Part shown: one piece after another, positions 9,635 to 37,400 of the stretch
Layout of the letters: each line of letters opens with the position of its first letter
How positions within the stretch are numbered: the first letter of the stretch is position 1
Source: a virus
UHGV virus genome: UHGV-2125590
DNA: 39,827 nt
Direction: 5' to 3' (one strand)
Program-made: the position numbers and the translations under genes
Notes under the pieces: generated by a model
Database searches by the model: none
What the model was told of the DNA's origin: nothing
Seen by the model: only the letters and a program-made list of their open reading frames with translations

Positions 9635-9948
9635 CGATCACAAAACAACGTGTAGAAGAAATCATATCCCGTATTGAAATGTATGGTCATGGTGCCGGGT
9701 ATACCGCTGATGAGGTTTATGACCTTGCTGTACTGGCGCTGAATTTATCAAATATCGCAAAACTCAAGCGATACGAGCTTGATATGGATGGTTGTGACTC
9801 GTTCGGTCAGGATTGTGGCGCTGACATGACTGAAGATTCTGATGGCGATTATGTCCTGTTTGATGACGTGGTTAAGTTGTTTGAGTTTGATACAACCACT
9901 CAGAAGTTAGAAAGCCCAGCAAAGGAGGCAACCAGTGAGCAAGATTGA
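9631..9948 (+). CDS. hypothetical protein
   Basis: 105 aa; GGAGGTGA RBS; start overlaps upstream stop. Confidence 0.5.
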   Translation: MTITKQRVEEIISRIEMYGHGAGYTADEVYDLAVLALNLSNIAKLKRYELDMDGCDSFGQDCGADMTEDSDGDYVLFDDVVKLFEFDTTTQKLESPAKEATSEQD

Positions 9949-10507
9949 CTATCAGGCACTGCGTGAGGCGGCAGAACGTGCAATTCCGGCAATGGAACGC
10001 CTGTTAATGTTGCCAGTTGATGATGATTTGTTAAGTGAACAGGAACTTAAGGATTACGGTGTGGATATTGATGCGCTCAACGCCTTCAAATTTCTGACCG
10101 GACCAGAAACCGTGCTGGCGCTGCTGGATGAACGGGAAAGAAACCAGCAATACATCAAACGCCGCGACCAGGAGAACGAGGAAATTGCGCTAACGGTAGG
10201 GAAGCTGCGCGTTGAGCTGGAAGCTGCAGAGAAGCGCATTGCAGAACTGGAAGCCGAACCTGTAAGCCAAACTTACAAGTTGAACGAGCTGTCGGGCAAC
10301 TATCCGGTAACTCCGGATGGTTGGATAAGCTGTAGTGAGCGAATGCCCGCTCAAGATGATTGGATTTTAATTTATTCAAAGCACGGCGAGTATATGGCAG
10401 GACAGGTACAAGGGGAATACGTGGAGTTGAGCGACGGCACTTTATCGTGGTTAGGGAACGCCTTGTACTGGATGCCTCTACCGGAACCGCCGCAGGAGGT
10501 TAATTGA
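9935..10507 (+). CDS. Ead/Ea22-like protein with DUF551-like C-terminal domain
   Basis: GTG start with AAGGAGG RBS; DYQALREAAE N-terminus and C-terminal WISCSERMP...W motifs. Confidence 0.6.
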   Translation: MSKIDYQALREAAERAIPAMERLLMLPVDDDLLSEQELKDYGVDIDALNAFKFLTGPETVLALLDERERNQQYIKRRDQENEEIALTVGKLRVELEAAEKRIAELEAEPVSQTYKLNELSGNYPVTPDGWISCSERMPAQDDWILIYSKHGEYMAGQVQGEYVELSDGTLSWLGNALYWMPLPEPPQEVN

Positions 10508-10701
10508 TGGTCTCCTTCGCGAAATATACGATTATTGACTGGATAGCATTCATTCAGGTTTTGCTCATCTGGTTTTATATGGCTTACAGGAGTGGACAGT
10601 GGATTGTCAGTGTAGCCTGTAGCAATGGATGGCGTTGGTGGAACCGAAAGAATAAAAAAAGCGCTGGCCTTGGCTTCGTTTTACGAAGCATTCAATCTTA
10701 A
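10507..10701 (+). CDS. small hydrophobic membrane protein
   Basis: 64 aa; ATG 10507 after GGAGG; hydrophobic core IIDWIAFIQVLLIWFYMAY and basic C-terminus. Confidence 0.4.
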   Translation: MVSFAKYTIIDWIAFIQVLLIWFYMAYRSGQWIVSVACSNGWRWWNRKNKKSAGLGFVLRSIQS

Positions 10702-10784
10702 CAGTCTTCAGCCTGGTTCTGTCGTTGTAGTCACCACTCAAAGCGGCATGACGATACAAATTCACAAGCCAAAGGAGGAAGGTC

Positions 10785-11066
10785 GTGGCTAACCTGCAAC
10801 TTGCCGTTAAAGGTGAATACTTCGATGCCATGATTCGCGGAGAGAAAACGGAAGAGTATCGCCTGTGTAATGACTACTGGAATAAGCGAATTATGTTCCG
10901 CGAGTATGACCGCCTGATTATCACAAAGGGATATCCGAAGCGCGACGATTCCAGCCGCAGAATTGACGTCCCGTATGACGGATATGAAATCAAGACAATC
11001 ACACATCCGCACTTCGGCGATAAACCGGTAAAGGTGTTCGCTATAAAGGTGAATATTGATGGCTAA
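10785..11066 (+). CDS. ASCH/DUF3850-like domain protein
   Basis: 93 aa; GTG start with AAAGGAGG RBS; GEYFDAMIRGEKTEEYR pattern resembling ASCH-fold proteins. Confidence 0.45.
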   Translation: MANLQLAVKGEYFDAMIRGEKTEEYRLCNDYWNKRIMFREYDRLIITKGYPKRDDSSRRIDVPYDGYEIKTITHPHFGDKPVKVFAIKVNIDG

Positions 11067-11701: not shown

Positions 11702-12298
11702 ATGATGCCTGCTGAACCTAAAACCTATAAACGCAAATCAACGCAATTTAAGCCGCTCACAGCAATGCAGGAGGCTTATTGCCAGTCATACATCAAAACG
11801 CCTGAAAACCAGACTCAGGCAGCGATTAACGCAGGATTCTCCCCAAATACAGCGGCAGTTAAAGCCAGTGTCATGATGCGCGATGAACGCATTCAAAAAC
11901 GGATTGCCGAGCTGATGGAGGAGCGCAACAAACGAATGCGCGTCAGTGCTGATTACGTTCTCATGCGCCTGGTGGAGATCGATCAGATGGACGTGATCGA
12001 CATCCTCAACGACGATGGGAGCCTTAAACCAATCCGTGAGTGGCCGAAAATCTGGCGCACTACGCTTAGTGGCTTTGATCTGTCATCGACCATCATGAAC
12101 ATGAACGAGGATTCGATAGAGACAATCCTCAAAAAAATTAAATGGCCTGACAAGGTGAAGAACCTTGAGCTGATTGGTAAGCATGTTGATGTCAACGCGT
12201 TCAAAGAACGTCTGGATGTTAATGTGAATGTGACAATTGCTGATCGCATAGCAGCAGCCAGGAAGCGACTCAAAGAACGTCAGGATGGTAATCAGTGA
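11702..12298 (+). CDS. terS: terminase small subunit
   Basis: Immediately upstream of and overlapping TerL; start moved to ATG 11702 because the ORF-track N-terminal extension contains the palindromic motif and low-complexity sequence. Confidence 0.6.
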   Translation: MMPAEPKTYKRKSTQFKPLTAMQEAYCQSYIKTPENQTQAAINAGFSPNTAAVKASVMMRDERIQKRIAELMEERNKRMRVSADYVLMRLVEIDQMDVIDILNDDGSLKPIREWPKIWRTTLSGFDLSSTIMNMNEDSIETILKKIKWPDKVKNLELIGKHVDVNAFKERLDVNVNVTIADRIAAARKRLKERQDGNQ

Positions 12299-13770
12299 CA
12301 GATACAGCGTTATCTCCTGAAGAGCAGTTGATCGAGGATATTGCAGGGTTCACTCACGATCCGCTTGGCTATGCCCTCTATGCGTTCCCGTGGGGGGAAG
12401 AGGGTACTGAACTGGCACATGCCACCGGTCCACGTCAGTGGCAGGCCGATGCGTTCCGAGAGATACGTGATCACCTGCAGAATCCAGAGACGAGATATCA
12501 GCCGCTTATGCTGGCACGTGCTTCTGGTCACGGTATTGGTAAATCCGCATTCATCTCAATGCTGATCAACTGGGGCATGTCCACTTGCGAGGATTGTAAG
12601 GTCGTGGTGACCGCCAACACCGACAACCAGCTACGAACGAAGACCTGGCCGGAAATTATCAAGTGGTCGAACCTTGCTATCACGAAAGACTGGTTTACCT
12701 GTACCGCTACCGCGATGTACAGCAATGACCCTGGGCACGACAAGCGGTGGCGTGCTGACGCAATACCCTGGTCTGAGCACAACACTGAGGCGTTCGCCGG
12801 ACTACACAACGAGCGCAAACGCATCATCGTGGTGTTTGATGAAGCGTCGAACATTGCGGATCTGGTGTGGGAAGTTGCCGAAGGTGCGCTAACGGACGAA
12901 GACACTGAGATTATCTGGGTGGCGTTCGGAAACCCGACGCGTAATACCGGACGTTTCCGTGAATGTTTCCGCAAGTATAAACACCGCTGGAAAACTGCGC
13001 AGATTGACAGTCGGACGGTGGAAGGTACCAACAAACAGCAGTTGCAGAAATGGGTTGATGACTACGGGGAAGACAGCGACTTCGTTAAAATCCGTGTGCG
13101 TGGCATATTCCCTGATGCATCTGAATTGCAGTTTATCCCTACCGGTCTTACTGACGAGGCAATGAAACGGGTGGTAACCGCTGCGCAGGTTGCACATGCT
13201 CCGGTGATAATCGGCGTTGACCCGGCATACTCCGGCGTTGATGACGCTGTGATATACCTGCGGCAGGGGCTACACAGTAAGGTGCTGTGGACTGGCAACA
13301 AGACTACCGACGATCTGATTATGGCGAAGCGTATCGCTGACTTTGAAGACCAGTATCAGGCTGACGCGGTGTTCATCGACTTCGGTTACGGAACCGGTTT
13401 GAAGTCAATCGGTGACGGCTGGGGTCGTACATGGCAACTTGTTCCGTTCGGTGGCGCGTCTACTGACCCGCAGATGCTTAACAAGCGTGGGGAGATGTTC
13501 AACTCATGTAAGACATGGCTGAGGCTGGGCGGCATGCTGGATGACCAGGAAACAGCGGACGACCTGTCGACGGCAGAGTACAAAGTTCGCGTGGACGGTA
13601 AAATCGTTATCGAACCGAAGGAAGATATCAAAGAGCGACTTGGGCGTTCGCCGGGGAAAGGCGATGCGCTATTGCTGACGTTTGCTTTCCCGGTCTCGAA
13701 ACGCATAAATATACCTGGACAGCAAAGCCAGCAGGGAAGGGCCATAACGGATTATGACCCTTATGCTTAA
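12295..13770 (+). CDS. terL: terminase large subunit
   Basis: 491 aa; Walker-A-like ARASGHGIGKS; size and position typical; GTG start overlapping terS stop. Confidence 0.85.
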   Translation: MTDTALSPEEQLIEDIAGFTHDPLGYALYAFPWGEEGTELAHATGPRQWQADAFREIRDHLQNPETRYQPLMLARASGHGIGKSAFISMLINWGMSTCEDCKVVVTANTDNQLRTKTWPEIIKWSNLAITKDWFTCTATAMYSNDPGHDKRWRADAIPWSEHNTEAFAGLHNERKRIIVVFDEASNIADLVWEVAEGALTDEDTEIIWVAFGNPTRNTGRFRECFRKYKHRWKTAQIDSRTVEGTNKQQLQKWVDDYGEDSDFVKIRVRGIFPDASELQFIPTGLTDEAMKRVVTAAQVAHAPVIIGVDPAYSGVDDAVIYLRQGLHSKVLWTGNKTTDDLIMAKRIADFEDQYQADAVFIDFGYGTGLKSIGDGWGRTWQLVPFGGASTDPQMLNKRGEMFNSCKTWLRLGGMLDDQETADDLSTAEYKVRVDGKIVIEPKEDIKERLGRSPGKGDALLLTFAFPVSKRINIPGQQSQQGRAITDYDPYA

Positions 13771-13820
13771 TCCGCTGGTGGGGATAATACTGCTGATATC
13801 CTCTGGTGAGGATAAAACAA

Positions 13821-13840
13821 AGCCAGCTCATCGGCTGGCT
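13821..13840. terminator. bidirectional hairpin terminator between terL and the minus-strand moron
   Basis: AGCCAGC / GCTGGCT stem; T-rich on both flanks. Confidence 0.4.
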
Positions 13841-13844
13841 GTTT

Positions 13845-13856
13845 GTGACATGTCAC
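13845..13856. repeat. 12-bp palindrome GTGACATGTCAC (copy 2 of 3)
   Basis: Exact string; same 14-mer TGTGACATGTCACG as copy 1. Confidence 0.9.
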
Positions 13857-13860
13857 GGTG

Positions 13861-14235
13861 TTATTGCTCGCTTAACTTCTGCTTCAGCAAGTAACCTTCG
13901 AGCATCCAGATTTTGTTTACAGCATTCTGCCGGGCAATCTTCCGACCAATTTCTGCATCAAAGTTTTCCGGGCTTGCACAGGCACTCTCTCCGGTAACGG
14001 TGAAGCCATTCTTCAGTACCAATACGCAGAAAGTGAGAAGGTGCAGAGCATCAGGGGTGGCTTCGACATAAGGCTCCGGATTATAAATAAGGTCATCTTC
14101 TTTAGCCTGGTGGTCACCCTGCGCAGCAGTGAAAAAATGCTCACTGCAAATGAGGCCTTCAATTTTCTCGGGTGTTACACGCGGAGCGGTTTTGCCTTTC
14201 TCAACGATTTCTTTTTCGATTTGCTGGTCGTTCAT
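13861..14235 (-). CDS. phage gp49 / Sf6 gene 66-family protein (moron)
   Basis: 124 aa on the opposite strand to the late operon; family recalled from prophage annotations, not verified. Confidence 0.5.
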   Translation of the reverse strand: MNDQQIEKEIVEKGKTAPRVTPEKIEGLICSEHFFTAAQGDHQAKEDDLIYNPEPYVEATPDALHLLTFCVLVLKNGFTVTGESACASPENFDAEIGRKIARQNAVNKIWMLEGYLLKQKLSEQ

Positions 14236-14346
14236 AATCTCACCTTAAAAAAATGCCCGGCGAACCTGGCGAACTGGAAGCAATGAGTTATGCCTTCCGT
14301 GGCTGTACGGGTTTACAGCATGAAGTCATCGCAATGGCGTCCTGCT

Positions 14347-14390
14347 GTAAAAAGGGCGGTGATAGTCCTTCAAGGGAAACTATCACCGCC
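14347..14390 (-). terminator. strong rho-independent terminator downstream of tRNA-Arg
   Basis: 12-bp stem GGCGGTGATAGT / ACTATCACCGCC followed by T-run on the minus strand. Confidence 0.55.
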
Positions 14391-14433
14391 AAGCACCTGG
14401 AACTTCTGGCATCACGGTCCTTAGGCGTGATTC

Positions 14434-14510
14434 TGGCGTGGCATGCAGGATTCGAACCTGCGACCAACCGCTTAGAAGGCGGTTGCTCTGTCCAACTGAG
14501 CTAATGCCAC
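14434..14510 (-). tRNA. tRNA-Arg (anticodon UCU)
   Basis: 77-nt cloverleaf derived by hand: acceptor GTGGCAT/ATGCCAC, D-arm GCTC/GAGC, anticodon stem ACCGC/GCGGT with loop CT-TCT-AA, T-arm GCAGG-TTCGAAT-CCTGC, encoded CCA. Confidence 0.85.
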
Positions 14511-14832
14511 AACGCTGAGAGCACTTAGCCTGTTAAGGCGCCACACTTTGTCGCGGCTCCATAAATGCTCTCATCGTTGTACCCTCGTCTCTTCCGAGGC
14601 GTCACACCGAATCGCCGGGATGGTGAATCCCCGTGCGCGGAATAAAACCGCTCGACTTGCACATTCCGGCTACCTGGTTCGTTTGCCCGAGCAAGGGAGG
14701 GTGCCCCTTAAACGTATCCAGACCGCTATCGGCGCATGTGCCATACGCCGTACTGCTCAAAATAAAAGCTCACTCCACCTGTTCAATTTAACGACAAGCC
14801 AGTCAGGTTAATAACCGGAATGAACCCTTTGC

Positions 14833-14847
14833 TTACCTGAAAGGTAA
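14833..14847. promoter_or_regulatory. perfect TTACC-N5-GGTAA palindrome upstream of the portal operon
   Basis: TTACC-TGAAA-GGTAAT; TATGTGGTT at 14891-14899 downstream. Confidence 0.5.
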
Positions 14848-14937
14848 TAATTTGTGCGTTAAATGTCAACTATCTACGATAAATAAATCATATGTGGTTA
14901 AATTGGTAATAATTTAATTGCGTACGGAGTCATTGAT

Positions 14938-15144
14938 ATGTGCATGGGTAGCTCACCGTCAGTGCCTGCAACACCAGAAGTTCAGGCAGCACCACAGGAG
15001 CAGGATGCCGCCGTTGTTGATGCCCGCGACGAAGAAACTCGTCGCCGTCGCGCTGCTGCTGGTCGTAGTTCTACGCTGCTTACCGGTTCTCAGGGCGACA
15101 CATCAACCGCTAATACCAGCGGTAAAACGCTACTTGGTCAGTAA
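14938..15144 (+). CDS. hypothetical small protein preceding portal
   Basis: 68 aa; GGAG RBS with the same CCGGAGTCATTGA(A/T)ATG context as the portal start. Confidence 0.5.
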   Translation: MCMGSSPSVPATPEVQAAPQEQDAAVVDARDEETRRRRAAAGRSSTLLTGSQGDTSTANTSGKTLLGQ

Positions 15145-15158
15145 CCGGAGTCATTGAA

Positions 15159-16838
15159 ATGGCGGAAACAACTAAAGAGCGATTGAACAAACAGTTCGCA
15201 CAACTTGAAAGCGAGCGTCAGTCGTTCGAGCCGCACTGGCGCGAGTTGAGTGATTACATCAACCCGCGTGGTTCCCGCTTTCTGACTTCTGAGGTCAACC
15301 GTAACGATCGACGCAATACACGTATTATTGATTCGACCGGGACTATGGCGGCGCGCACTCTCGCCAGCGGCATGATGTCAGGCATCACAAGCCCCGCGCG
15401 TCCGTGGTTTCGCCTGGCTACGCCAGATCCTGAAATGATGGATTATGGCCCTGTTAAGTTGTGGCTTGAGGCGGTGCAGAACCGCATGAACGATATGTTC
15501 AATAAGTCGAATCTCTATCAGTCGCTGCCGCAGTTATACGGAAGCCTCGGCACATACAGCACTGGTGCAATGGCAGTGCTGGAGGATGACGAGGACATCA
15601 TTCGCACAATGCCATTCCCGATAGGCAGTTACTACCTGGCTAACTCACCTCGTGGCAGTGTGGACACCTGTTTTCGCAAGTTCTCTATGACTGTTCGTCA
15701 GCTTGTTCAGGAGTTCGGGCTAAATAACGTCAGCGAATCCGTAAAAAGCATGTGGGAAAGCGGAACCTACGAGAAGTGGATTGAAGTGATGCATTCGGTT
15801 TACCCGAACATTGACCGCGATACATCGAAGCTGGATAGCAAGAACAAGCCATTCAAATCGGTTTATTACGAGGTTGGTGGCGATAACGACAAGTTGTTGC
15901 GTGAGTCCGGATTCGATGAGTTTCCAATTATGGCTCCGCGCTGGGAAGTTAACGGCGAAGATGTTTATGGATCATCATGCCCGGGTATGCTGGCGCTTGG
16001 ACCTGTTAAGGCATTGCAGCTTCTCCAGAAGCGCAAGTCGCAGTTGATTGATAAAGCCACCAATCCGCCGATGGTTGCTCCGACTTCCCTCAAGAATCAG
16101 CGTGCCTCCCTTCTTCCTGGCGACATCACGTATATCGATCAGATTACTGGTCAGGATGGTTTCAGGCCTGCTTATCTGGTTAACCCCAGTACAGCAGATT
16201 TGGTGGCAGACATTCAGGACACCCGTCAAATCATTAACAGCGCCTACTTTGTCGATCTGTTCATGATGTTGCAGAACATCAATACCCGCTCGATGCCTGT
16301 TGAAGCGGTGATCGAAATGAAAGAAGAAAAACTTCTGATGTTGGGGCCGGTTCTGGAGCGTCTGAACGACGAATGTCTTAATCCTCTCATTGACCGCGCT
16401 TTCTCGATGATGGTGCGTAAAAACATGCTGCCGCCACCGCCTGACGCGATGGAAGGTATGCCCCTGAAGGTCGAATACATTTCCGTCATGGCTCAGGCGC
16501 AGAAGTCTATCGGTCTGTCCAGTCTGGCGTCTACGGTCAACTTCATTGGTCAACTTGCGCAAGCGAAACCAGAAGCTCTCGACAAACTCAACGTTGATCA
16601 GGCGATCGATGCATTCGCTGATATGTCCGGAGTGTCTCCAACCGTCATTGTTCCGCAGGAACAGGTTGAGCAGGCTCGCCAGCAACGGGCACAGCAACAA
16701 CAGCAGCAACAAATGATGGCGATGGGGATGGCGGCGGCACAGGGTGCCAAGACGCTAAGCGAAGCTAAAACTTCGGATCCGAGTGTTTTGTCAGCTATGG
16801 CGAATGCAGTTAGTGGTCAGGGTGGGCAATCACAATGA
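15159..16838 (+). CDS. portal (head-to-tail connector) protein, T7/epsilon15-like
   Basis: 559 aa; position after terL; N-terminal pattern recalled from podovirus connector proteins. Confidence 0.75.
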   Translation: MAETTKERLNKQFAQLESERQSFEPHWRELSDYINPRGSRFLTSEVNRNDRRNTRIIDSTGTMAARTLASGMMSGITSPARPWFRLATPDPEMMDYGPVKLWLEAVQNRMNDMFNKSNLYQSLPQLYGSLGTYSTGAMAVLEDDEDIIRTMPFPIGSYYLANSPRGSVDTCFRKFSMTVRQLVQEFGLNNVSESVKSMWESGTYEKWIEVMHSVYPNIDRDTSKLDSKNKPFKSVYYEVGGDNDKLLRESGFDEFPIMAPRWEVNGEDVYGSSCPGMLALGPVKALQLLQKRKSQLIDKATNPPMVAPTSLKNQRASLLPGDITYIDQITGQDGFRPAYLVNPSTADLVADIQDTRQIINSAYFVDLFMMLQNINTRSMPVEAVIEMKEEKLLMLGPVLERLNDECLNPLIDRAFSMMVRKNMLPPPPDAMEGMPLKVEYISVMAQAQKSIGLSSLASTVNFIGQLAQAKPEALDKLNVDQAIDAFADMSGVSPTVIVPQEQVEQARQQRAQQQQQQQMMAMGMAAAQGAKTLSEAKTSDPSVLSAMANAVSGQGGQSQ

Positions 16839-31364: not shown

Positions 31365-31997
31365 TTAATGCAGTTTATCTTTGCTTATAACCAGTAGTCT
31401 GTGGGTATGCACATCTTTATCACTGCCCCAACAGAAATCAGCCCACTGGCTATAGAAATCATCCCATGATGTCATGAAGCTAAGAGGTCTATCTTCTTCA
31501 GAGCCATCTGAAACGTATACATTATATCCCGGGGTGTTTATAGCCCAAGAAATCATTCTTTCCCAGAATCTTCTCCCATCGATTGTTTGTTGCTCATCAG
31601 ATACAACGATCGCATATTGCTCTAGGAAGAACTGAAAAAAAATCTGAGGCAAACCATGAACAGCACGGTCATGAATAACATTAGGCGTACGCCATACCAT
31701 GATCTGCGTACATGTTCTTTTGGCTTCGACGATATCTTCCCGAAAGATTAACTTAACCGCATACACCGTTTCTGGAGTATCGCTGGTAGTAATCATTCTG
31801 TAATGATCGCCATTACAAGATTTTACAAGGCGATAACCATAAGGTGTTGTGAATCCCGGAAGAACGAAATCAACCACACCTTTCGCTAAGTAGCTTTCGG
31901 TGTGACTAGTGTTCTTCTCAGACATGTTCAGTTTTCTATCGAAATCTGCTTCTGGGATAATGTATGGCATCGCTTTTCTTGTTGTATTTGTTCTCAT
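31365..31997 (-). CDS. hypothetical 210-aa moron protein
   Basis: ATG 31997 with GGGAGGA RBS; own promoter region carrying the palindromic motif and own terminator; no family recognised. Confidence 0.55.
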   Translation of the reverse strand: MRTNTTRKAMPYIIPEADFDRKLNMSEKNTSHTESYLAKGVVDFVLPGFTTPYGYRLVKSCNGDHYRMITTSDTPETVYAVKLIFREDIVEAKRTCTQIMVWRTPNVIHDRAVHGLPQIFFQFFLEQYAIVVSDEQQTIDGRRFWERMISWAINTPGYNVYVSDGSEEDRPLSFMTSWDDFYSQWADFCWGSDKDVHTHRLLVISKDKLH

Positions 31998-32056
31998 TTC
32001 GTCCTCCCATGTTTGGCTACAGGACGCGTTTTGAAGGGAAGATTAAAAATGCTTTC

Positions 32057-32071
32057 TTACCCTTGAGGTAA
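32057..32071. promoter_or_regulatory. perfect TTACC-N5-GGTAA palindrome upstream of the 210-aa moron gene
   Basis: TTACC-CTTGA-GGTAAT. Confidence 0.5.
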
Positions 32072-32141
32072 TAGTACGCTATTCACCCCCAGTCTGCAAT
32101 CGTACAGAATTATTTAAAGGCACATCCCTGTGCCGCCGCCG

Positions 32142-32834
32142 TCAGAAGAACCCTGCTTTGTCGTTGATGTACTCCGCGTGAGTCTGGATATCACGCAGGC
32201 ATTTGCTCACACCGACGATGTAGCAGAACATGGTGGTCAGCTCCGCTGCAGCGCCCGATACATCATGCCCGTCTTCCTGTAACTGGTTCAGCAAATTCAT
32301 CAGCAGTGAGTTCTCCGTCAGGCCGAGAACACCAGACGGCGAATGAATCAGGCTGCGGTAGCCGGGCTTCAGCGGGGCACTGTAGGTTTTGTTCTCTATC
32401 TTCATCGCCTGCATTACTGCTGACGCCGTGGCGTTGGCTACCTGGTCGGCAACCATCTTTATGCGTTCTTCCTGCGGGAGCGAGTTTTTAATGTAACTTC
32501 CTGTGCGGCGGATCTGAGGAAGAACCTCACCTGTAACCCATTCAAGAAATCTGAATGCTCTCGTTCCCTCTGTCATTGCCTCTTTGCAACGCAGAATAAG
32601 GATGTAGAGACCTGATTCTGAAACGATGGATAGTTCTTGTATTCCACCAGGGGTCTGTATTGAATACAGCCCCTTTTTGTTCCAGCCTTTTTTATCAAGT
32701 TTTCTCGCTTGTGTAACATCAATATTCAAAGCATTGCACACATCTTTGGTGACAAACCAAGGTTCTCCGTCAATCATGAACATACGGATCTGGCAGGATG
32801 ACTCAAAGGAAAAGATGGAAGGTTTGGTATTCAT
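32142..32834 (-). CDS. Bro-N domain protein (antirepressor-like)
   Basis: ATG 32834 (AGGTGA RBS); N-terminal IRMFMIDGEPWFVTKDVCNALNI...GLYILI...LPQIRRTG is the Bro-N signature. Confidence 0.7.
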   Translation of the reverse strand: MNTKPSIFSFESSCQIRMFMIDGEPWFVTKDVCNALNIDVTQARKLDKKGWNKKGLYSIQTPGGIQELSIVSESGLYILILRCKEAMTEGTRAFRFLEWVTGEVLPQIRRTGSYIKNSLPQEERIKMVADQVANATASAVMQAMKIENKTYSAPLKPGYRSLIHSPSGVLGLTENSLLMNLLNQLQEDGHDVSGAAAELTTMFCYIVGVSKCLRDIQTHAEYINDKAGFF

Positions 32835-33101
32835 GGCGATCACCTTTGTAGTTAGGTTAATCACCACCGCTGAGACCAATCAGATGGTGGTGAACTGTGC
32901 AGAGTTGGTCTTACCGGCTACAAAGGAACCCGGCGCACCTTTCGGTGCCCCCACACAGCCCACCATAGAATAGGTGCGCTTTACACATAAAAAAACCGCT
33001 TATGCGGCATATGTGCCTCTGTAGTAATCCGGGAGACCAATCCCGGCACTGGATTTTGCCAGTGCCCGATTACTATGGCACAAGAGGAGTGCGATGTAAA
33101 T

Positions 33102-33209
33102 TTACCTCAAAGGTAATGATAAACGCGAAGAAATATTAAAATCAACCGTATTTGGTTGATTGGGTTTAACGCTTGATCACCTGAAAGCAAGATATTACCT
33201 TTAAGGTAA
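33102..33209. promoter_or_regulatory. two perfect TTACC-N5-GGTAA palindromes in the divergent promoter region
   Basis: 33102-33116 and 33195-33209, between the Bro-N gene (minus) and the 242-aa gene (plus). Confidence 0.5.
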
Positions 33210-33229
33210 TGTTATTGTGAGGAAAAGAA

Positions 33230-33958
33230 ATGGAAGTTTTCTGGATAGTTGTTGGTGTGGTTGCGGTGATTATTTACGTTATCAACCAGAACAAGACTAA
33301 GATCTCTGATCGTACGGTCGTTAATCATAACAAAACGATAAAGACCGAAGATGGGGAGATAACGATTAATCGTACACAGGTGATAGAACACACCTCTACT
33401 CAGTTTCAAAAAACTGGAGGTAATGCGCCTAATATTTCCGCACCTCCTGCTTATGATAGTGCGGTAATCCAGACATATTATAAACAGCAGGAGTTAGCAA
33501 AAGAGAGGCAACTGATTCAGCCAAAGCCGTTTACAGCTGAGCTTCCACCTGGAGTGTCAACGCGTCCGGCATATCATGGAAGATTCCCTGGTGGTGACAT
33601 ATCGTCTCAGTCATCTAAAAAAGCACCTCAGGCAGTATCAGAGCCAGCAAGAATACCTTCTGTATCGCCGCCAAAAGAAGAATCAGCTAACAGAGTTTCA
33701 AGTGGTAGCAAGCAGTGCTTGCGATGCAGAATAAACCTTCCATATGAAAAATTCAGGAAATCGTCAAAAAATCCAGATGGATTGACTAAGTGGTGTGCAA
33801 GGTGTCTCGATGGCCCAAAGAATACACGCCATATGAAGTGGTGCCCAATTTGTAATGTCCGCAGAAAACGAACCAGCTTTTACCCTAATAATCAAAATGC
33901 GGACGGCTTAATGGCATGGTGCAAAACGTGCTGGGATGAGCACAAAGCGAAACGATAG
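33230..33958 (+). CDS. membrane-anchored protein with tandem C-terminal zinc-ribbon-like repeats
   Basis: N-terminal TM helix FWIVVGVVAVIIYVI; two repeats of C-x2-C...DGL-x2-WC-x2-C; GAGGAAAA RBS. Confidence 0.55.
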   Translation: MEVFWIVVGVVAVIIYVINQNKTKISDRTVVNHNKTIKTEDGEITINRTQVIEHTSTQFQKTGGNAPNISAPPAYDSAVIQTYYKQQELAKERQLIQPKPFTAELPPGVSTRPAYHGRFPGGDISSQSSKKAPQAVSEPARIPSVSPPKEESANRVSSGSKQCLRCRINLPYEKFRKSSKNPDGLTKWCARCLDGPKNTRHMKWCPICNVRRKRTSFYPNNQNADGLMAWCKTCWDEHKAKR

Positions 33959-33981
33959 GCCGCTCTTGCGGCCTTTAAATT
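33958..33981. terminator. hairpin terminator between convergent moron genes
   Basis: GGCCGC-TCTT-GCGGCC followed by TTTAAATTT. Confidence 0.4.
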
Positions 33982-34238
33982 TACCGGGTTTGTTTTCGTA
34001 ATTGTTCGGCACAATAGTCGAGATGTGTTTGCAGATCCCGCATAGACATCTGTGAGCTGGTGACGTAGTTAATCAGTGCAGTCAGTTCGGCAAGTGGGCC
34101 ATCGACATTAAATCCATCCTTATCGAGATCCCGGAGTAATTTCATCAAGTGCGATCCCTCCACCAGTGACCTGACGCCTCCCGGCGTGTGAATCCTTTCG
34201 GTAAATCCGTCTTCCAGTGGATAGTGATACTGCTGCAT
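33981..34238 (-). CDS. small protein homologous to the C-terminal domain of the Bro-N protein
   Basis: 85 aa from ATG 34238 (GGAG RBS); aligns by eye to the last ~70 aa of the Bro-N protein (H.P.GV..L.E.S.LM.LL..L..DG..V.G..AELT...NYV......RD.QTH). Confidence 0.45.
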   Translation of the reverse strand: MQQYHYPLEDGFTERIHTPGGVRSLVEGSHLMKLLRDLDKDGFNVDGPLAELTALINYVTSSQMSMRDLQTHLDYCAEQLRKQTR

Positions 34239-34314
34239 CTTATCTTCTCCATGCAATAACTGTATATTTATACAGTAACAAATAATTTGTTTGCTATCCA
34301 GCACGTTTTGCAAA

Positions 34315-34329
34315 TTACCCGAAAGGTAA
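34315..34329. promoter_or_regulatory. perfect TTACC-N5-GGTAA palindrome between the small minus-strand gene and the tailspike gene
   Basis: ATTACC-CGAAA-GGTAAT; TATGTGGTT at 34361-34369. Confidence 0.5.
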
Positions 34330-34433
34330 TATCTATTCGTATTTACAGTCTTTCTATCCATATGTGGTTTTCCAGGTAATAGAATAACCAGATATGCGGC
34401 GCAACGGGTGCTGCGACTATCTGGAGATTTAAC

Positions 34434-37400
34434 ATGACGGTCTCAACCGAAGTTGACCACAACGAATACACCGGTAACGGCGTTACGACATCGTTTCCGT
34501 ATACTTTTCGAATTTTCAGAAAATCAGACCTGGTTGTTCAGGTGTCTGACCTGAACGGAAACGTAACAGAATTGGTTCTGGATACCGGTTATACGGTAAC
34601 TGGGGCGGGCACTTATAGTGGCGGTTCTGTGGTTCTTCCGTCTCCGCTTGCTACTGGATGGCGAATTACGATAGATCGTGTGCTTGATGTGGTGCAGGAG
34701 ACTGATCTTCGTAATCAGGGAAAATTTTTCCCCGAGGTGCATGAAGATGCCTTTGACTATCTGACGATGCTGATCCAGCAATGTTTTGGATGGTTCAGAC
34801 GTGCATTGATGAAACCATCTTTGCTTGCAAAATATTACGATGCAAAGCAAAACAAAATTTCTAACCTTGCAGATCCATCATTTGAGCAGGACGCTGTAAA
34901 TAATCGCTCAATGCGTAATTATGTCGATGCTGCAATCGCCGGGGTTGTTGGTGGTTTTGGTTGGTTTATTCAGTATGGTTCTGGGGCTGTGTACCGAACG
35001 TTCCAGGATAAAATGCGTGATGCTATTAGCCCCAAAGATTTTGGAGCTGTTGGTGATGGTATAAATGACGATTCCACTGCAATAAGCGCGTGCCTTGAAG
35101 CCTCATCTCCAGGTTATAAAATTGACGGATTAGGGCTTACTTTTAAAGTATCAACTCTTCCGGATGTCAGTCGATTTAAAAATGCTCGTTTTTTATTTGA
35201 GAGAATACCGGGCCAGCCTCTTTTTTATGCTTCTGAAGATTTTATCCAGGGAGAGTTATTTAAAATTACAGATACACCGTGGTACAACGCCTGGACGCAG
35301 GATAAAACGTTTGTATATGACAATGTCATCTATGCGCCTTTTATGGCTGGAGACCGCCATGGTGTAAATAACCTCCATGTTGCATGGGTTCGCTCAGGAG
35401 ATGACGGGAAGACCTGGACAACGCCGGAATGGCTTACAGATTTACATGAAAACTATCCCACAGTTAACTATCACTGCATGAGTATGGGGGTTGTCAGAAA
35501 TCGCCTTTTTGCTGTAATTGAGACGCGGACCGTGAGCGGAAATAAACTGCAGGTTGCAGAGTTGTGGGATCGCCCAATGAGTCGCAGCCTTCGCGTTTAT
35601 GGTGGTATAACGAAAGCAGCAAATCAGCAAGTCGCTTATATTCGCATTACTGATCACGGATTATTTGCTGGTGATTTTGTCAACTTCTCAAACTCTGGTG
35701 TTACAGGTGTTACCGGGAATATGACGGTGACTACTGTTATTGATAAAAATACTTTTACAGTTACGACGCAAAATACCCAGGATGTGGATCAGAATAACGA
35801 GGGTAGATACTGGAGTTTTGGTACATCATTTCACTCGTCACCATGGAGAAAAACCAGTCTTGGAACTATTCCTTCTTTTGTTGACGGAAGCACTCCTGTT
35901 ACTGAGATTCACAGTTTTGCGACGATTAGCGATAACAGTTTTGCTGTTGGCTACCATAATGGTGATATTGGTCCACGCGAGCTTGGGATACTCTATTTCT
36001 CTGATGCTTTCGGTTCTCCTGGTAGCTTTGTTCGCAGACGCATACCTGCAGAATATGAGGCGAATGCATCTGAGCCATGTGTAAAATATTATGATGGCAT
36101 TCTGTATCTGACGACCAGGGGGACATTAAGTACTCAACCCGGTAGTTCATTGCACAGAAGCTCTGATTTAGGTACATCATGGAATTCTCTTCGCTTCCCA
36201 AATAATGTTCATCACTCAAACCTTCCTTTTGCCAAAGTTGGCGATGAGCTGATTATTTTTGGCAGTGAGCGCGCATTTGGTGAGTGGGAAGGAGGAGAAC
36301 CTGATAACCGTTATGCAGGAAATTATCCAAGAACATTTATGACCAGAGTTAACGTCAATGAGTGGAGTCTGGATAATGTAGAGTGGGTTAATGTTACTGA
36401 TCAGATTTATCAGGGCGGAATAGTTAACTCTGCGGTTGGTGTTGGTTCAGTTTGTATCAAAGACAACTGGCTGTACTACATTTTCGGTGGGGAAGACTTT
36501 CTAAACCCATGGAGCATAGGGGATAACAACAGAAAATATCCTTATGTTCACGATGGTCACCCGGCTGATTTGTATTGTTTCAGGGTGAAAATTAAACAGG
36601 AAGAATTTGTTTCAAGGGATTTTGTCTACGGAGCCACTCCTAACAGAACGCTTCCTACTTTTATGTCGACGTCAGGCGTGAGGACGGTTCCTGTACCCGT
36701 TGATTTCACAGATGATGTTGCCGTCCAGTCACTGACTGTCCATGCAGGTACATCAGGACAAGTTCGCGCGGAAGTCAAACTTGAGGGTAATTACGCCATT
36801 ATTGCGAAGAAAGTACCGTCTGATGATGTTACCGCTCAGAGATTAATCGTTAGCGGAGGTGAAACAACGTCTTCAGCAGATGGTGCAATGATAACGTTGC
36901 ATGGTTCCGGAAGCAGTACTCCACGTCGCGCGGTATATAACGCACTCGAACATCTTTTTGAGAACGGAGATGTTAAACCTTATCTTGATAATGTAAATGC
37001 TCTTGGTGGTCCGGGAAACAGGTTCTCGACAGTTTATCTTGGCTCCAATCCTGTGGTTACCAGTGACGGAACATTAAAGACAGAGCCGGTCTCTCCTGAC
37101 GAAACATTGCTGGATGCCTGGGGTGACGTCAGGTATATCGCTTATAAATGGCTGAACGCTGTCGCTATAAAGGGGGAAGAAGGGGCGAGGATACATCATG
37201 GTGTAATCGCGCAGCAACTTCGTGATGTTCTTATTTCTCACGGACTCATGGAAGAAGAAAGCACAACATGCCGCTATGCCTTTCTTTGCTATGACGATTA
37301 TCCCGCAGTATATGATGACGTCATTACTGGCCAAAGGGAAATGCCGCTGACTGATAATGACGGGAGCATCATTGTTGATGAGGATGATAATCCAGTGATG

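Follow-up and report, generated by a model that had tools for sequence, protein, structure and literature searches.

A conserved structured leader RNA lies upstream of an argU-like tRNA and a PF13876 gene in the viral genome UHGV-2125590

Introduction

The viral genome UHGV-2125590 is represented by a stretch of 39,827 nucleotides (nt; referred to below as the window) in which the rightward genes for terminase (TerL) and the portal protein are separated by a block of features on the opposite strand. Reading leftwards, this block comprises a promoter-like site, a leader, a gene for tRNA-Arg(UCU), a terminator (T1), a second, terminator-like hairpin (T2) and a gene of the PF13876 family, whose product is predicted to be a sponge for cyclic dinucleotides (Table 1). 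A first-pass annotation described the block as a 1.2-kb insert between terminase and portal. The flanking genes are as it described, but the word ‘insert’ is not apt, as a leftward block is found here in all Uetakeviruses examined and its contents alone vary. Nor is the 427-nt interval that separates the tRNA from the next gene (14511-14937) a spacer: a promoter-like site, a presumed operator and a conserved structured RNA are located there, and it is this RNA that is our main subject.

Uetakeviruses are epsilon15-like temperate podoviruses. Judged by its sequence, the window is a prophage of the phiV10-like type within this group, because region 13600-15200 is 96-98% identical to the phages of the phiV10 group (phiV10, the O157 typing phages 9 and 10, TL-2011b and ZX5). 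Codon-matching phage tRNAs, the tRNA and Acb4-family gene of phiV10-like prophages and the phase variation of the capsule-modifying gene neuO are already known. The unexpected feature is the leader RNA, which has no Rfam family, no annotation and no sequence match in full-text literature.

A conserved structured RNA adjoins the tRNA gene

The interval 14511-14937 is 70-83% conserved in Salmonella and Klebsiella relatives despite the presence there of a different downstream (cargo) gene, and the ~240 nt adjoining the 5' side of the tRNA (14750-14517) form a structured RNA that is also found in unrelated phages. The leader as a whole can be divided into a 5' domain, a core with hairpins and an H-type pseudoknot, and a 3' portion closed by a long-range stem, P7 (Table 1). 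In epsilon15, the record marks the stretch matching the 5' domain as an RNase III site.

Support for the core comes from a set of 56 sequences, at most 96% identical, in which P1, P2, the pseudoknot and P6 were tested. Paired cells amounted to 94.8%, compared with 85.9% in shuffles, and two-sided changes were seen at 13 of the 27 pairs. The covariation score of 0.282 (vs 0.131) was reached by none of 500 shuffles, and slid controls gave no more than 0.083. A profile built from 15 copies from outside the Uetakeviruses finds a single match in the window, at 14753-14580 on the minus strand (E=3e-35). Two-sided changes are also visible by eye in P7, which appears as GAGAGCA/UGCUCUC, AAGAGCA/UGCUCUU or GAGAGCGCAC/GUGCGCUC in different copies; P7, like the tRNA-like domain and the boxA/boxB resemblances discussed below, was recognised from single folds and reading of alignments. 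Among the first 11 copies, collected by similarity, an 18-nt motif in the core shows no variation. This motif then served to select the later copies, so its invariance beyond the first 11 is partly built in, and the copy collection as a whole carries the bias of this motif prefilter.

One helix proposed by RNAalifold, in which GGUCYGG pairs with GCCGGAAUG, was set aside and P2 (UCYGG with CCRGG) adopted instead, since P2, unlike that helix, is preserved in copies with UCCAC/GUGGG. Protein coding was also considered as a cause of the conservation and rejected: the small open reading frames (ORFs) in the leader (14548-14811 on the plus strand, 14602-14760 on the minus strand and others) are not conserved, and covariation in the stems would account for what is.

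Rfam returned nothing for the leader either at gathering thresholds, with the whole window as query, or at E<=10, with positions 13700-15200. Rfam 15 likewise returned nothing at E<=1 for the element in six other loci, and no match for two conserved leader motifs, written as DNA or as RNA, was found in literature full text. The Pas small RNA (sRNA) is unrelated to the leader.

Table 1 Features of the leftward block, its flanks and neuO, by position in the window
Feature	Position	Strand	Remarks
TerL	12295-13770	+	Left flank of the leftward block
Terminator hairpin	13821..13840	.	Between convergent terL and acb4; scan calls the minus strand
acb4-family gene (PF13876, ‘gp49/Sf6 gp66’)	13861..14235	-	124 amino acids (aa); predicted cyclic-dinucleotide sponge (anti-CBASS)
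T2	14247..14271	-	Short GC hairpin then U7, directly before the cargo Shine-Dalgarno sequence; A/G mismatch in the window
T1 intrinsic terminator	14349..14390 (stem 14390-14355)	-	14-bp stem, GGCGGUGAUAG...CUAUCACCGCC, then CUUUUU; scan and fold
Hairpin AUCACG-N9-CGUGAU	14411..14431	-	Directly 3' of the tRNA; fold; conserved in SPC32H, Klebsiella phages, Tyrion and PAT1
tRNA-Arg(UCU)	14434..14510	-	argU-like, CCA encoded; ARAGORN, Rfam RF00005, alignment with K-12 argU
P7 long-range stem	14517..14572 (GAGAGCA 14572-14566 with UGCUCUC 14523-14517)	-	Minimum free energy fold; closes a variable insert
Conserved structured RNA core	14583..14750	-	Profile match and covariation
P6 hairpin	14599-14583	-	Part of core
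H-type pseudoknot	S1 14631-14628 with 14620-14617; S2 14625-14622 with 14608-14605	-	GGGA/UCCC and CACC/GGUG
Variable P3	14653-14635	-	Part of core
GUAGCCGGAAUGUGCAAG motif	14673-14656	-	18 nt
P2	14722-14718 with 14677-14673	-	Encloses a variable hairpin
P1 hairpin	14750-14730	-	Part of core
5' leader domain	14751..14832	-	Conserved GTCGTTAAAT...GGTGGAGTG segment; alignment of window, epsilon15 and Tyrion
Promoter-like site	14833..14869	-	TTGACA 14869-14864, 17-nt spacer, TACCTT 14846-14841; -10 overlaps a palindrome
Portal	15159-16838	+	PF12236; right flank of the leftward block
neuO	37710..38430	+	K1 capsule O-acetyltransferase; 99-100% identical to neuO of CUS-3 and phiv205-1

The element is widespread in phages and prophages

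The element was found in 1064 of 5426 complete E. coli genomes (about one in five), and beneath none of these copies is there an annotated feature. It occurs in lambdoid phages (mEp460, mEp390, cdtI, 1720a-02 and both Stx2c and Stx2a phages) as well as in P1, P7, D6, SJ46, a Lastavirus and a phage labelled Stenotrophomonas. Exact-motif scans yielded 24 loci in species-representative genomes, one of them a chance match within a gene, and at least 120 viral contigs. Its relationship to tRNA genes is varied: in 31 of 160 copies a tRNA-Arg(UCU) abuts the 3' end, at +164 from the motif, in 18 a tRNA-Ile2-type gene (anticodon CAU) ends ~14 nt before the 5' end, and the remaining copies have no tRNA nearby.

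An ORF precedes the element in 122 copies, and in 72 of these it is a cI-like gene on the same strand that ends a median of 147 nt upstream. The promoter between the cI-like gene and the RNA has the same operators as the cI-cro region (OR), and in the lambdoids it is therefore PL, making the RNA the leader of the early-left transcript. Terminator-like hairpins lie 100-600 nt downstream in 63 of 108 copies, compared with 59 of 288 control segments, and mEp460 has, in order, PL/OL, leader, tRNA-like domain, 11-bp terminator and first gene. The stretch from PL to the first terminator of mEp460 holds no N-like ORF, and none of the largest clusters of first downstream ORFs is N-like by eye. The mEp phages were isolated as Nus-dependent (PMC11893012). 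In P1, the RNA has trnI and ban as its neighbours, within the ban operon, which is controlled by C1.

As a separate observation, the stretch between element and terminator in some lambdoid copies (L013 at 1631-1750, L047 and L150) resembles the 3' half of the sRNA RprA (UUGCUGUGUGUAGUCUUGGC), with an Rfam score of 50.2 bits that is below the gathering score of 70. The stretch is absent from the window.

A promoter-like site overlapped by a presumed repressor operator

The -10 element of the promoter-like site upstream of the leader is overlapped by the palindrome TTACCTTTCAGGTAA (14847-14833), a presumed operator of the phage repressor. The positions of the -35 and -10 elements are conserved, with a variable spacer, in SPC32H, the Klebsiella phages, Tyrion and epsilon15 (relatives from Salmonella, Klebsiella and Enterobacter). 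Palindromes of the form TTACC-N5-GGTAA are found 15 times in the window, where 0.68 would be expected, and look like a dispersed repressor regulon of the P1 type; the epsilon15 record has annotated dispersed repressor-binding sites, one of which is at the equivalent promoter position. The 15 sites begin at 136, 5389, 5451, 6163, 6211, 6548, 8450, 8512, 11670, 11688, 14833, 32057, 33102, 33195 and 34315, all of them intergenic in the sense that no long ORF is listed there.

A generic promoter scan called no sigma-70-like site in 13600-15200, the site at 14841-14869 itself being too weak for the scan. As the -10 of the only promoter-like site upstream overlaps the repressor operator, the unit is probably repressed in the lysogen and would fire early after induction or infection, with the tRNA probably silent in the lysogen. 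Early timing would also suit an anti-defence gene. With no other promoter-like site in 13600-15200, the acb4 gene appears to depend on transcripts that pass both T1 and T2.

T1, T2, a deletion in epsilon15 and the cargo slot

The first-pass annotation gave the tRNA a strong terminator of its own, and this is indeed what is found: T1 lies directly 3' of the tRNA, its stem followed by CTTTTT. Its equivalent in Tyrion and mEp460 is GGCGGUACCAG/CUGGUACCGC, from which the stem in the window differs by compensatory changes. The second hairpin, T2, has a perfect and covarying stem in relatives (GCCCAC/GUGGGC in epsilon15, SPC32H and PAT1; GCCCGG/CCGGGC in Tyrion and the Klebsiella phages) and in Uetakeviruses precedes the ribosome-binding site of the cargo gene whatever that cargo may be. 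Between T1 and T2 (14272-14348, minus strand) there is a block of ~37 nt, GACGCCAUUGCGAUGACUUCAUGCUGUAAACCC, that is nearly invariant irrespective of cargo across the Uetakeviruses of E. coli, Salmonella, Klebsiella and Enterobacter. At the far end of the unit is the hairpin shared with terL, for which the phiV10 record has a rho-independent terminator on the plus strand at the equivalent site; together with the minus-strand call made by the scan, this suggests that it is bidirectional.

Epsilon15 offers a natural deletion. Comparison of its locus (L011, 2812-2976) with 14355-14750 of the window reveals that the promoter, the 5' domain and hairpin P1 are retained, whilst the whole stretch between the P2 and T1 loops is gone, and with it the core, the 3' domain and one half of T1. 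Both ends of the deletion bear TTCCCTTGA, a loop motif common to the variable hairpin of the core and the terminator.

Assignment of the cargo gene of the window to the gp49/Sf6-66 family, as made in the first-pass annotation, is confirmed by a match to Pfam PF13876 (Phage_gp49_66; E=2.4e-34, 118 bits) over the full 82-position profile. PF13876 has been equated with the Acb4 family (1,331 members), whose SPO1 representative is a tetrameric sponge for 3'3'-cyclic GMP-AMP (cGAMP) that defeats the cyclic-oligonucleotide-based anti-phage signalling system (CBASS), and 8 of 8 homologues tested bound cGAMP (PMC11722364). Phmmer matches the window protein to the solved SPO1 structure (9e4w; E=0.004); the two proteins have the PF13876 match in common, to which the window protein adds an N-terminal extension of ~55 aa. 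Mapping through the 9e4w alignment indicates that 3 of 9 ligand-contact residues of the SPO1 protein are kept (F48, F62 and I66) and that K36, E49, V56, Y57, N63 and T70 are changed, K36 and E49 being the residues that read guanine. Membership of the Acb4 family is secure, and the window protein may bind cGAMP.

The same slot is occupied by a gene for a Tad2-like protein (PF11195, E=4e-26) in a Klebsiella relative, by another PF13876 gene in epsilon15 and by genes for unknown small proteins in other relatives. It is a swappable cargo position, and anti-defence sponges account for two of its known cargoes.

These arrangements bear on what the leader might do. One possibility, on the unlikely side in our estimation, is that it is a self-contained cassette for a stable non-coding RNA, equipped with a promoter and terminator of its own, released by RNase P at the tRNA or tRNA-like domain and acting in trans on a conserved host target, with the cargo gene expressed independently; the stable RNAs of the T4 tRNA cluster, described below, would be a parallel. 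The promoter, the RNA, T1 and either the tRNA or its tRNA-like counterpart are conserved as a set across unrelated phage types, the spacing to abutting tRNAs is fixed (31 copies have one at the 3' end and 18 at the 5' end), the 3' domain is cloverleaf-like where no tRNA is present, and the highly conserved 18-nt stretch lies outside the covariation-supported helices, which suggests a conserved partner; the retention of the Acb4 gene in epsilon15 in the absence of the core fits too. Such a cassette is hard to square, however, with the lambdoids, where the RNA is flanked by PL and the early-left genes and no second promoter can be seen, so that a terminator at this point would silence the operon, or with the placement of T2 directly before the ribosome-binding site of any cargo; nor does such an RNA have a known target. 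The alternative that we favour, in which the leader controls read-through, is considered below.

An intact argU-like tRNA and a tRNA-like counterpart

The minus-strand tRNA-Arg(UCU) named in the first-pass annotation is recovered both by ARAGORN (anticodon tct), which finds no other tRNA in the window, and by Rfam (RF00005, 73.3 bits, the gathering score being 29). With its full cloverleaf, argU-like sequence and encoded CCA, it is no pseudogene. In E. coli the arginine identity elements are A20, C35 and a purine at position 73, and the window tRNA has A20 in the D loop, C35 in an anticodon loop of sequence CUUCUAA, and G73. Alignment with K-12 argU reveals identity in the D arm, the T arm and the anticodon loop; the two sequences differ only in the variable loop and, through compensated pairs, in the acceptor and anticodon stems. 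The gene is annotated, in the same position and on the same strand, in the O157 typing phages 9 and 10, phiv142-3, SPN9TCW, SPC32H and vB_EcoP_ZX5, and the tRNA and the leader RNA are present together in Salmonella and Klebsiella Uetakeviruses. For phage ZX5, ‘one tRNA’ has been reported (PMC9782041). In the phiV10 RefSeq record the tRNA feature is absent and there is instead a coding sequence, PhiV10p04 (2156-2407, equivalent to 14253-14504 on the plus strand of the window), antisense to the tRNA-Arg and terminator, which is probably spurious. That the tRNA is a remnant of an attachment site was ruled out: it is full length with CCA and ~24 kb from int, and guaA is the reported integration site of a related phage.

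Copies of the leader that lack the tRNA have in its exact position a 3' domain of ~130 nt, closed by GUUGUGGUG/CACCACAAC and of cloverleaf-like topology in the fold of the mEp460 copy. There are hints that this tRNA-like domain and real tRNAs are evolutionarily connected. In one IMG/VR copy without a tRNA (L117) the 3' domain begins GUGGUUAGCUCAGG, with tRNA-like acceptor and D-stem sequence. It might be argued from such copies that the tRNA has no selected role in decoding and is a stand-in for the tRNA-like domain, kept as a site for RNase P: the cloverleaf-like domain (GUGGUG...CACCAC) sits exactly where the tRNA does (GUGGCAU...AUGCCAC), the junction GCGUU|GUGG is common to both, and Tyrion, PAT1 and ST11-OXA245phi3.2 carry the domain instead. 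We regard this as very improbable. All of the arginine identity features and a perfect cloverleaf are retained in copies from three host genera (E. coli, Salmonella and Klebsiella), which argues for selection on decoding, and the genome is rich in AGA codons.

Might the tRNA serve mainly in counter-defence, by replacing or acting as a decoy for a host tRNA-Arg(UCU) attacked by a tRNA-targeting defence system or toxin? In favour of this, it would be co-transcribed with a gene of sponge type (Acb4 here, Tad2-like in a relative), its acceptor and anticodon stems differ from those of argU by compensated changes, and its presence is not tied to AGA load. With the anticodon loop, D arm and T arm identical to those of argU, however, a nuclease that recognised the anticodon loop would cut the phage tRNA as well, and no tRNA-Arg(UCU)-specific defence system was identified here. 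The proposal is accordingly judged improbable.

AGA codons and the neuO gene

Codon usage in 42 curated phage genes (11,819 codons) was compared with that in 46 annotated K-12 genes (14,635 codons). AGA stands at 9.48 per 1000 codons in the phage and 1.50 in K-12, a 6.3-fold difference (odds ratio 6.4, Fisher p=1e-20), and AGG at 4.23 and 0.68, respectively. Since the tRNA is intact and AGA is about six times as frequent as in the host, the general idea behind the first-pass annotation, a tRNA matched to a phage genome rich in AGA, is upheld.

The densest gene is neuO, the body of which has 37 AGA per 1000 codons, followed by the block 31365-34361 (24), the tailspike (16), the integrase (13), the early genes (9.3), the tail and injection genes (7.8), the head module (2.2) and the terminase (1.4). 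The 112 AGA codons are otherwise distributed: 8 (about 7%) are in the neuO body, whereas the tailspike has 17, the tail and injection genes 27 and the early genes 30, making 74 for the last three. Within the tailspike, 15 of the 17 lie in a part derived from CUS-3. In the block 31365-34361, a minus-strand AT-rich ORF (31365-31997, GC content 0.41) has 10 AGA in 210 codons and matches only phrog_1349, of unknown function, and a plus-strand AT-rich ORF (33230-33958, GC content 0.44) has 5 AGA and 3 AGG in 242 codons and, in its C-terminal part, weak endonuclease VII and Lar-like matches.

CUS-3, a P22-like phage, is the key to the right end of the window. Positions 35132-39827, a 4.7-kb module made up of the C-terminal endosialidase part of the tailspike, neuO and int, are 99% identical to CUS-3, and this CUS-3-like right end marks the prophage, on the sequence comparison, as a mosaic of Uetakevirus and CUS-3 and its host as probably K1 E. 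coli. A second CUS-3-like segment is a 1.1-kb piece of the early region (9936-11056), the two segments being 99-99.6% identical to CUS-3, and phiv205-1, from avian pathogenic E. coli, matches the neuO region at 100%.

In neuO, a tract of AAGACTC heptamers begins 2 nt past the ATG, with each set of three repeats coding for an RLKTQDS heptad, and active enzyme is made only at repeat numbers divisible by three (PMC3046976). The tract of the window, at 37713-37784, has 10.3 copies of the heptamer or, counted as AAGACTC (the poly-psi tract), 10 copies at 37715-37784. It too begins 2 nt past the ATG, as in CUS-3, although the backbone around it is here that of a Uetakevirus. The first-pass annotation read the heptamer in a productive frame with AGA in every second repeat. 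Neither point holds. The 7-nt unit regains its frame every 21 nt, so AGA recurs once in three repeats (SRLKTQD), and the frame is closed in this copy: ten repeats put the ATG (37710) out of frame, it meets TGA TGA TAA after 28 codons and neuO is therefore phase OFF. One repeat fewer would give a NeuO of 237 aa, this ON allele having 238 codons, 11 of them AGA.

It was further suggested that the tRNA may support translation of rare-codon morons, namely the repeat tract and the acetyltransferase body of neuO. An intact tRNA, an AGA-enriched genome and an AGA-rich acetyltransferase body are all borne out, and neuO is the densest gene; the specific link to neuO is not supported. CUS-3, in which neuO is usually carried, has no tRNA gene, and its lysogens nevertheless O-acetylate the K1 capsule (PMC3046976). 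A DNA search with neuO matched solely Escherichia and CUS-3 records, and none of the tRNA-bearing relatives from Salmonella and Klebsiella. With neuO in the OFF phase here and most AGA codons located elsewhere, and with a conversion gene that acts in the lysogen set against a tRNA promoter that overlaps a repressor operator, it is improbable that the tRNA exists to support such morons, although not quite so remote as the stand-in role discussed above.

How might the leader act?

The reading that we favour, at a little under an even chance, is that the leftward block constitutes one repressor-controlled early accessory unit whose leader governs read-through of the terminators. From 5' to 3' the unit would consist of the operator-overlapped promoter, a leader of ~330 nt with its pseudoknotted core, the argU-like tRNA, T1, the spacer, T2, the Acb4 gene and the terminator shared with terL. 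Infection or induction would free the operator and allow transcription; RNase P would cut at the 5' end of the tRNA, both releasing it and setting the 3' end of the leader; and the tRNA would supply additional AGA decoding during lytic growth, mostly for tailspike, tail and early genes. The leader itself would act in cis, on RNA polymerase or on the folding of T1 and T2, to bring about partial read-through into the anti-defence gene, and in the lambdoids the RNA, which occupies the corresponding position, would have this effect on the early-left operon. Taken by itself, control of read-through by the leader has clearly less than an even chance of being correct, much the same as or slightly better than that of a stable RNA acting in trans, and other roles rank below both.

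Several observations weigh against this reading. The promoter matches the consensus weakly, and T2 in the window is weak (-6.5 kcal/mol, no better than shuffles). The Acb4 gene of epsilon15 is intact behind T2 despite the loss of the core, which cannot therefore be indispensable for keeping the gene. The conservation of T1 together with the RNA would also fit a self-contained RNA gene with its own terminator, and truly processive antitermination would run antisense transcription into terL. Copies of the P1 type are shorter, being without P7, the tRNA-like domain and T1, and lie in mid-operon, just before ban. With regard to any gain from the tRNA, its presence is uncoupled from AGA load in five Uetakeviruses, with 8.8, 6.2 and 5.1 AGA per 1000 codons in those with the tRNA and 4.4 and 7.1 in those without. 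Two further points arise from the comparison with phage HK022.

Like the leader, the putL and putR RNAs of HK022 immediately follow an early promoter under repressor control and precede terminators, with no N gene there. A put RNA, however, is ~70 nt long and has two stem-loops, whereas the leader core alone is ~170 nt with a pseudoknot and has further domains besides, making it 3 to 5 times larger, and an nhmmer search of the HK022 immunity region found no similarity to the leader, a short hairpin resemblance being seen by eye only. That the leader is a put homologue was rejected on these grounds: the defining features (size, two stem-loops and sequence) were looked for and are absent, which places the leader outside the put family. 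It may nevertheless work like put. If so, it would represent an undescribed class of phage early-leader RNA that enables terminator read-through, alone or with host Nus factors, as a structurally unrelated counterpart of put, an interpretation that we consider possible but rather unlikely.

There are also resemblances to the nut sites of lambda and the leaders of rrn operons. By eye, the 3' strand of P7 (UGCUCUUU or UGCUCUC) is like boxA (UGCUCUY) and is followed by a GU-rich, boxC-like GUUGUGG, whilst the P6 hairpin has 5 bp and a loop rich in purines, and the mEp phages that host the element are Nus-dependent. In contrast to nut, the boxA-like sequence of the leader is predicted to be base-paired, and no N-like ORF was found. 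Lastly, the tRNA cluster of T4 encodes stable RNAs of unknown function. There too, non-tRNA RNAs abut or are co-transcribed with tRNAs, their ends presumably being generated by tRNA processing, but the phage and the sequences are unrelated and the likeness is by analogy only.

Another regulatory RNA module in the prophage

Elsewhere in the window, Rfam identifies two tandem RNAs at 32883-33065 on the minus strand, one a C4 antisense RNA (78.6 bits) and the other isrK (74.7 bits). The pair lies directly upstream of a 245-aa ORF (32142-32879, minus strand), an arrangement that corresponds to the immI antirepressor control module of P1 and P7. In mEp460, the same C4/isrK pair adjoins the antirepressor gene (locus L008, 206-394).

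Implications

Whatever the leader may do, a tRNA and a tRNA-like domain appear interchangeable at one position in this RNA, which bears on how phages acquire tRNA genes. Should control of read-through prove correct, it would explain the timing of expression of the anti-CBASS or anti-Thoeris gene in Uetakeviruses, the activation of the early-left operon in lambdoid prophages that lack N, Stx phages included, and the control of the ban region in P1, and would add a second natural case of RNA-mediated control of the elongating polymerase.

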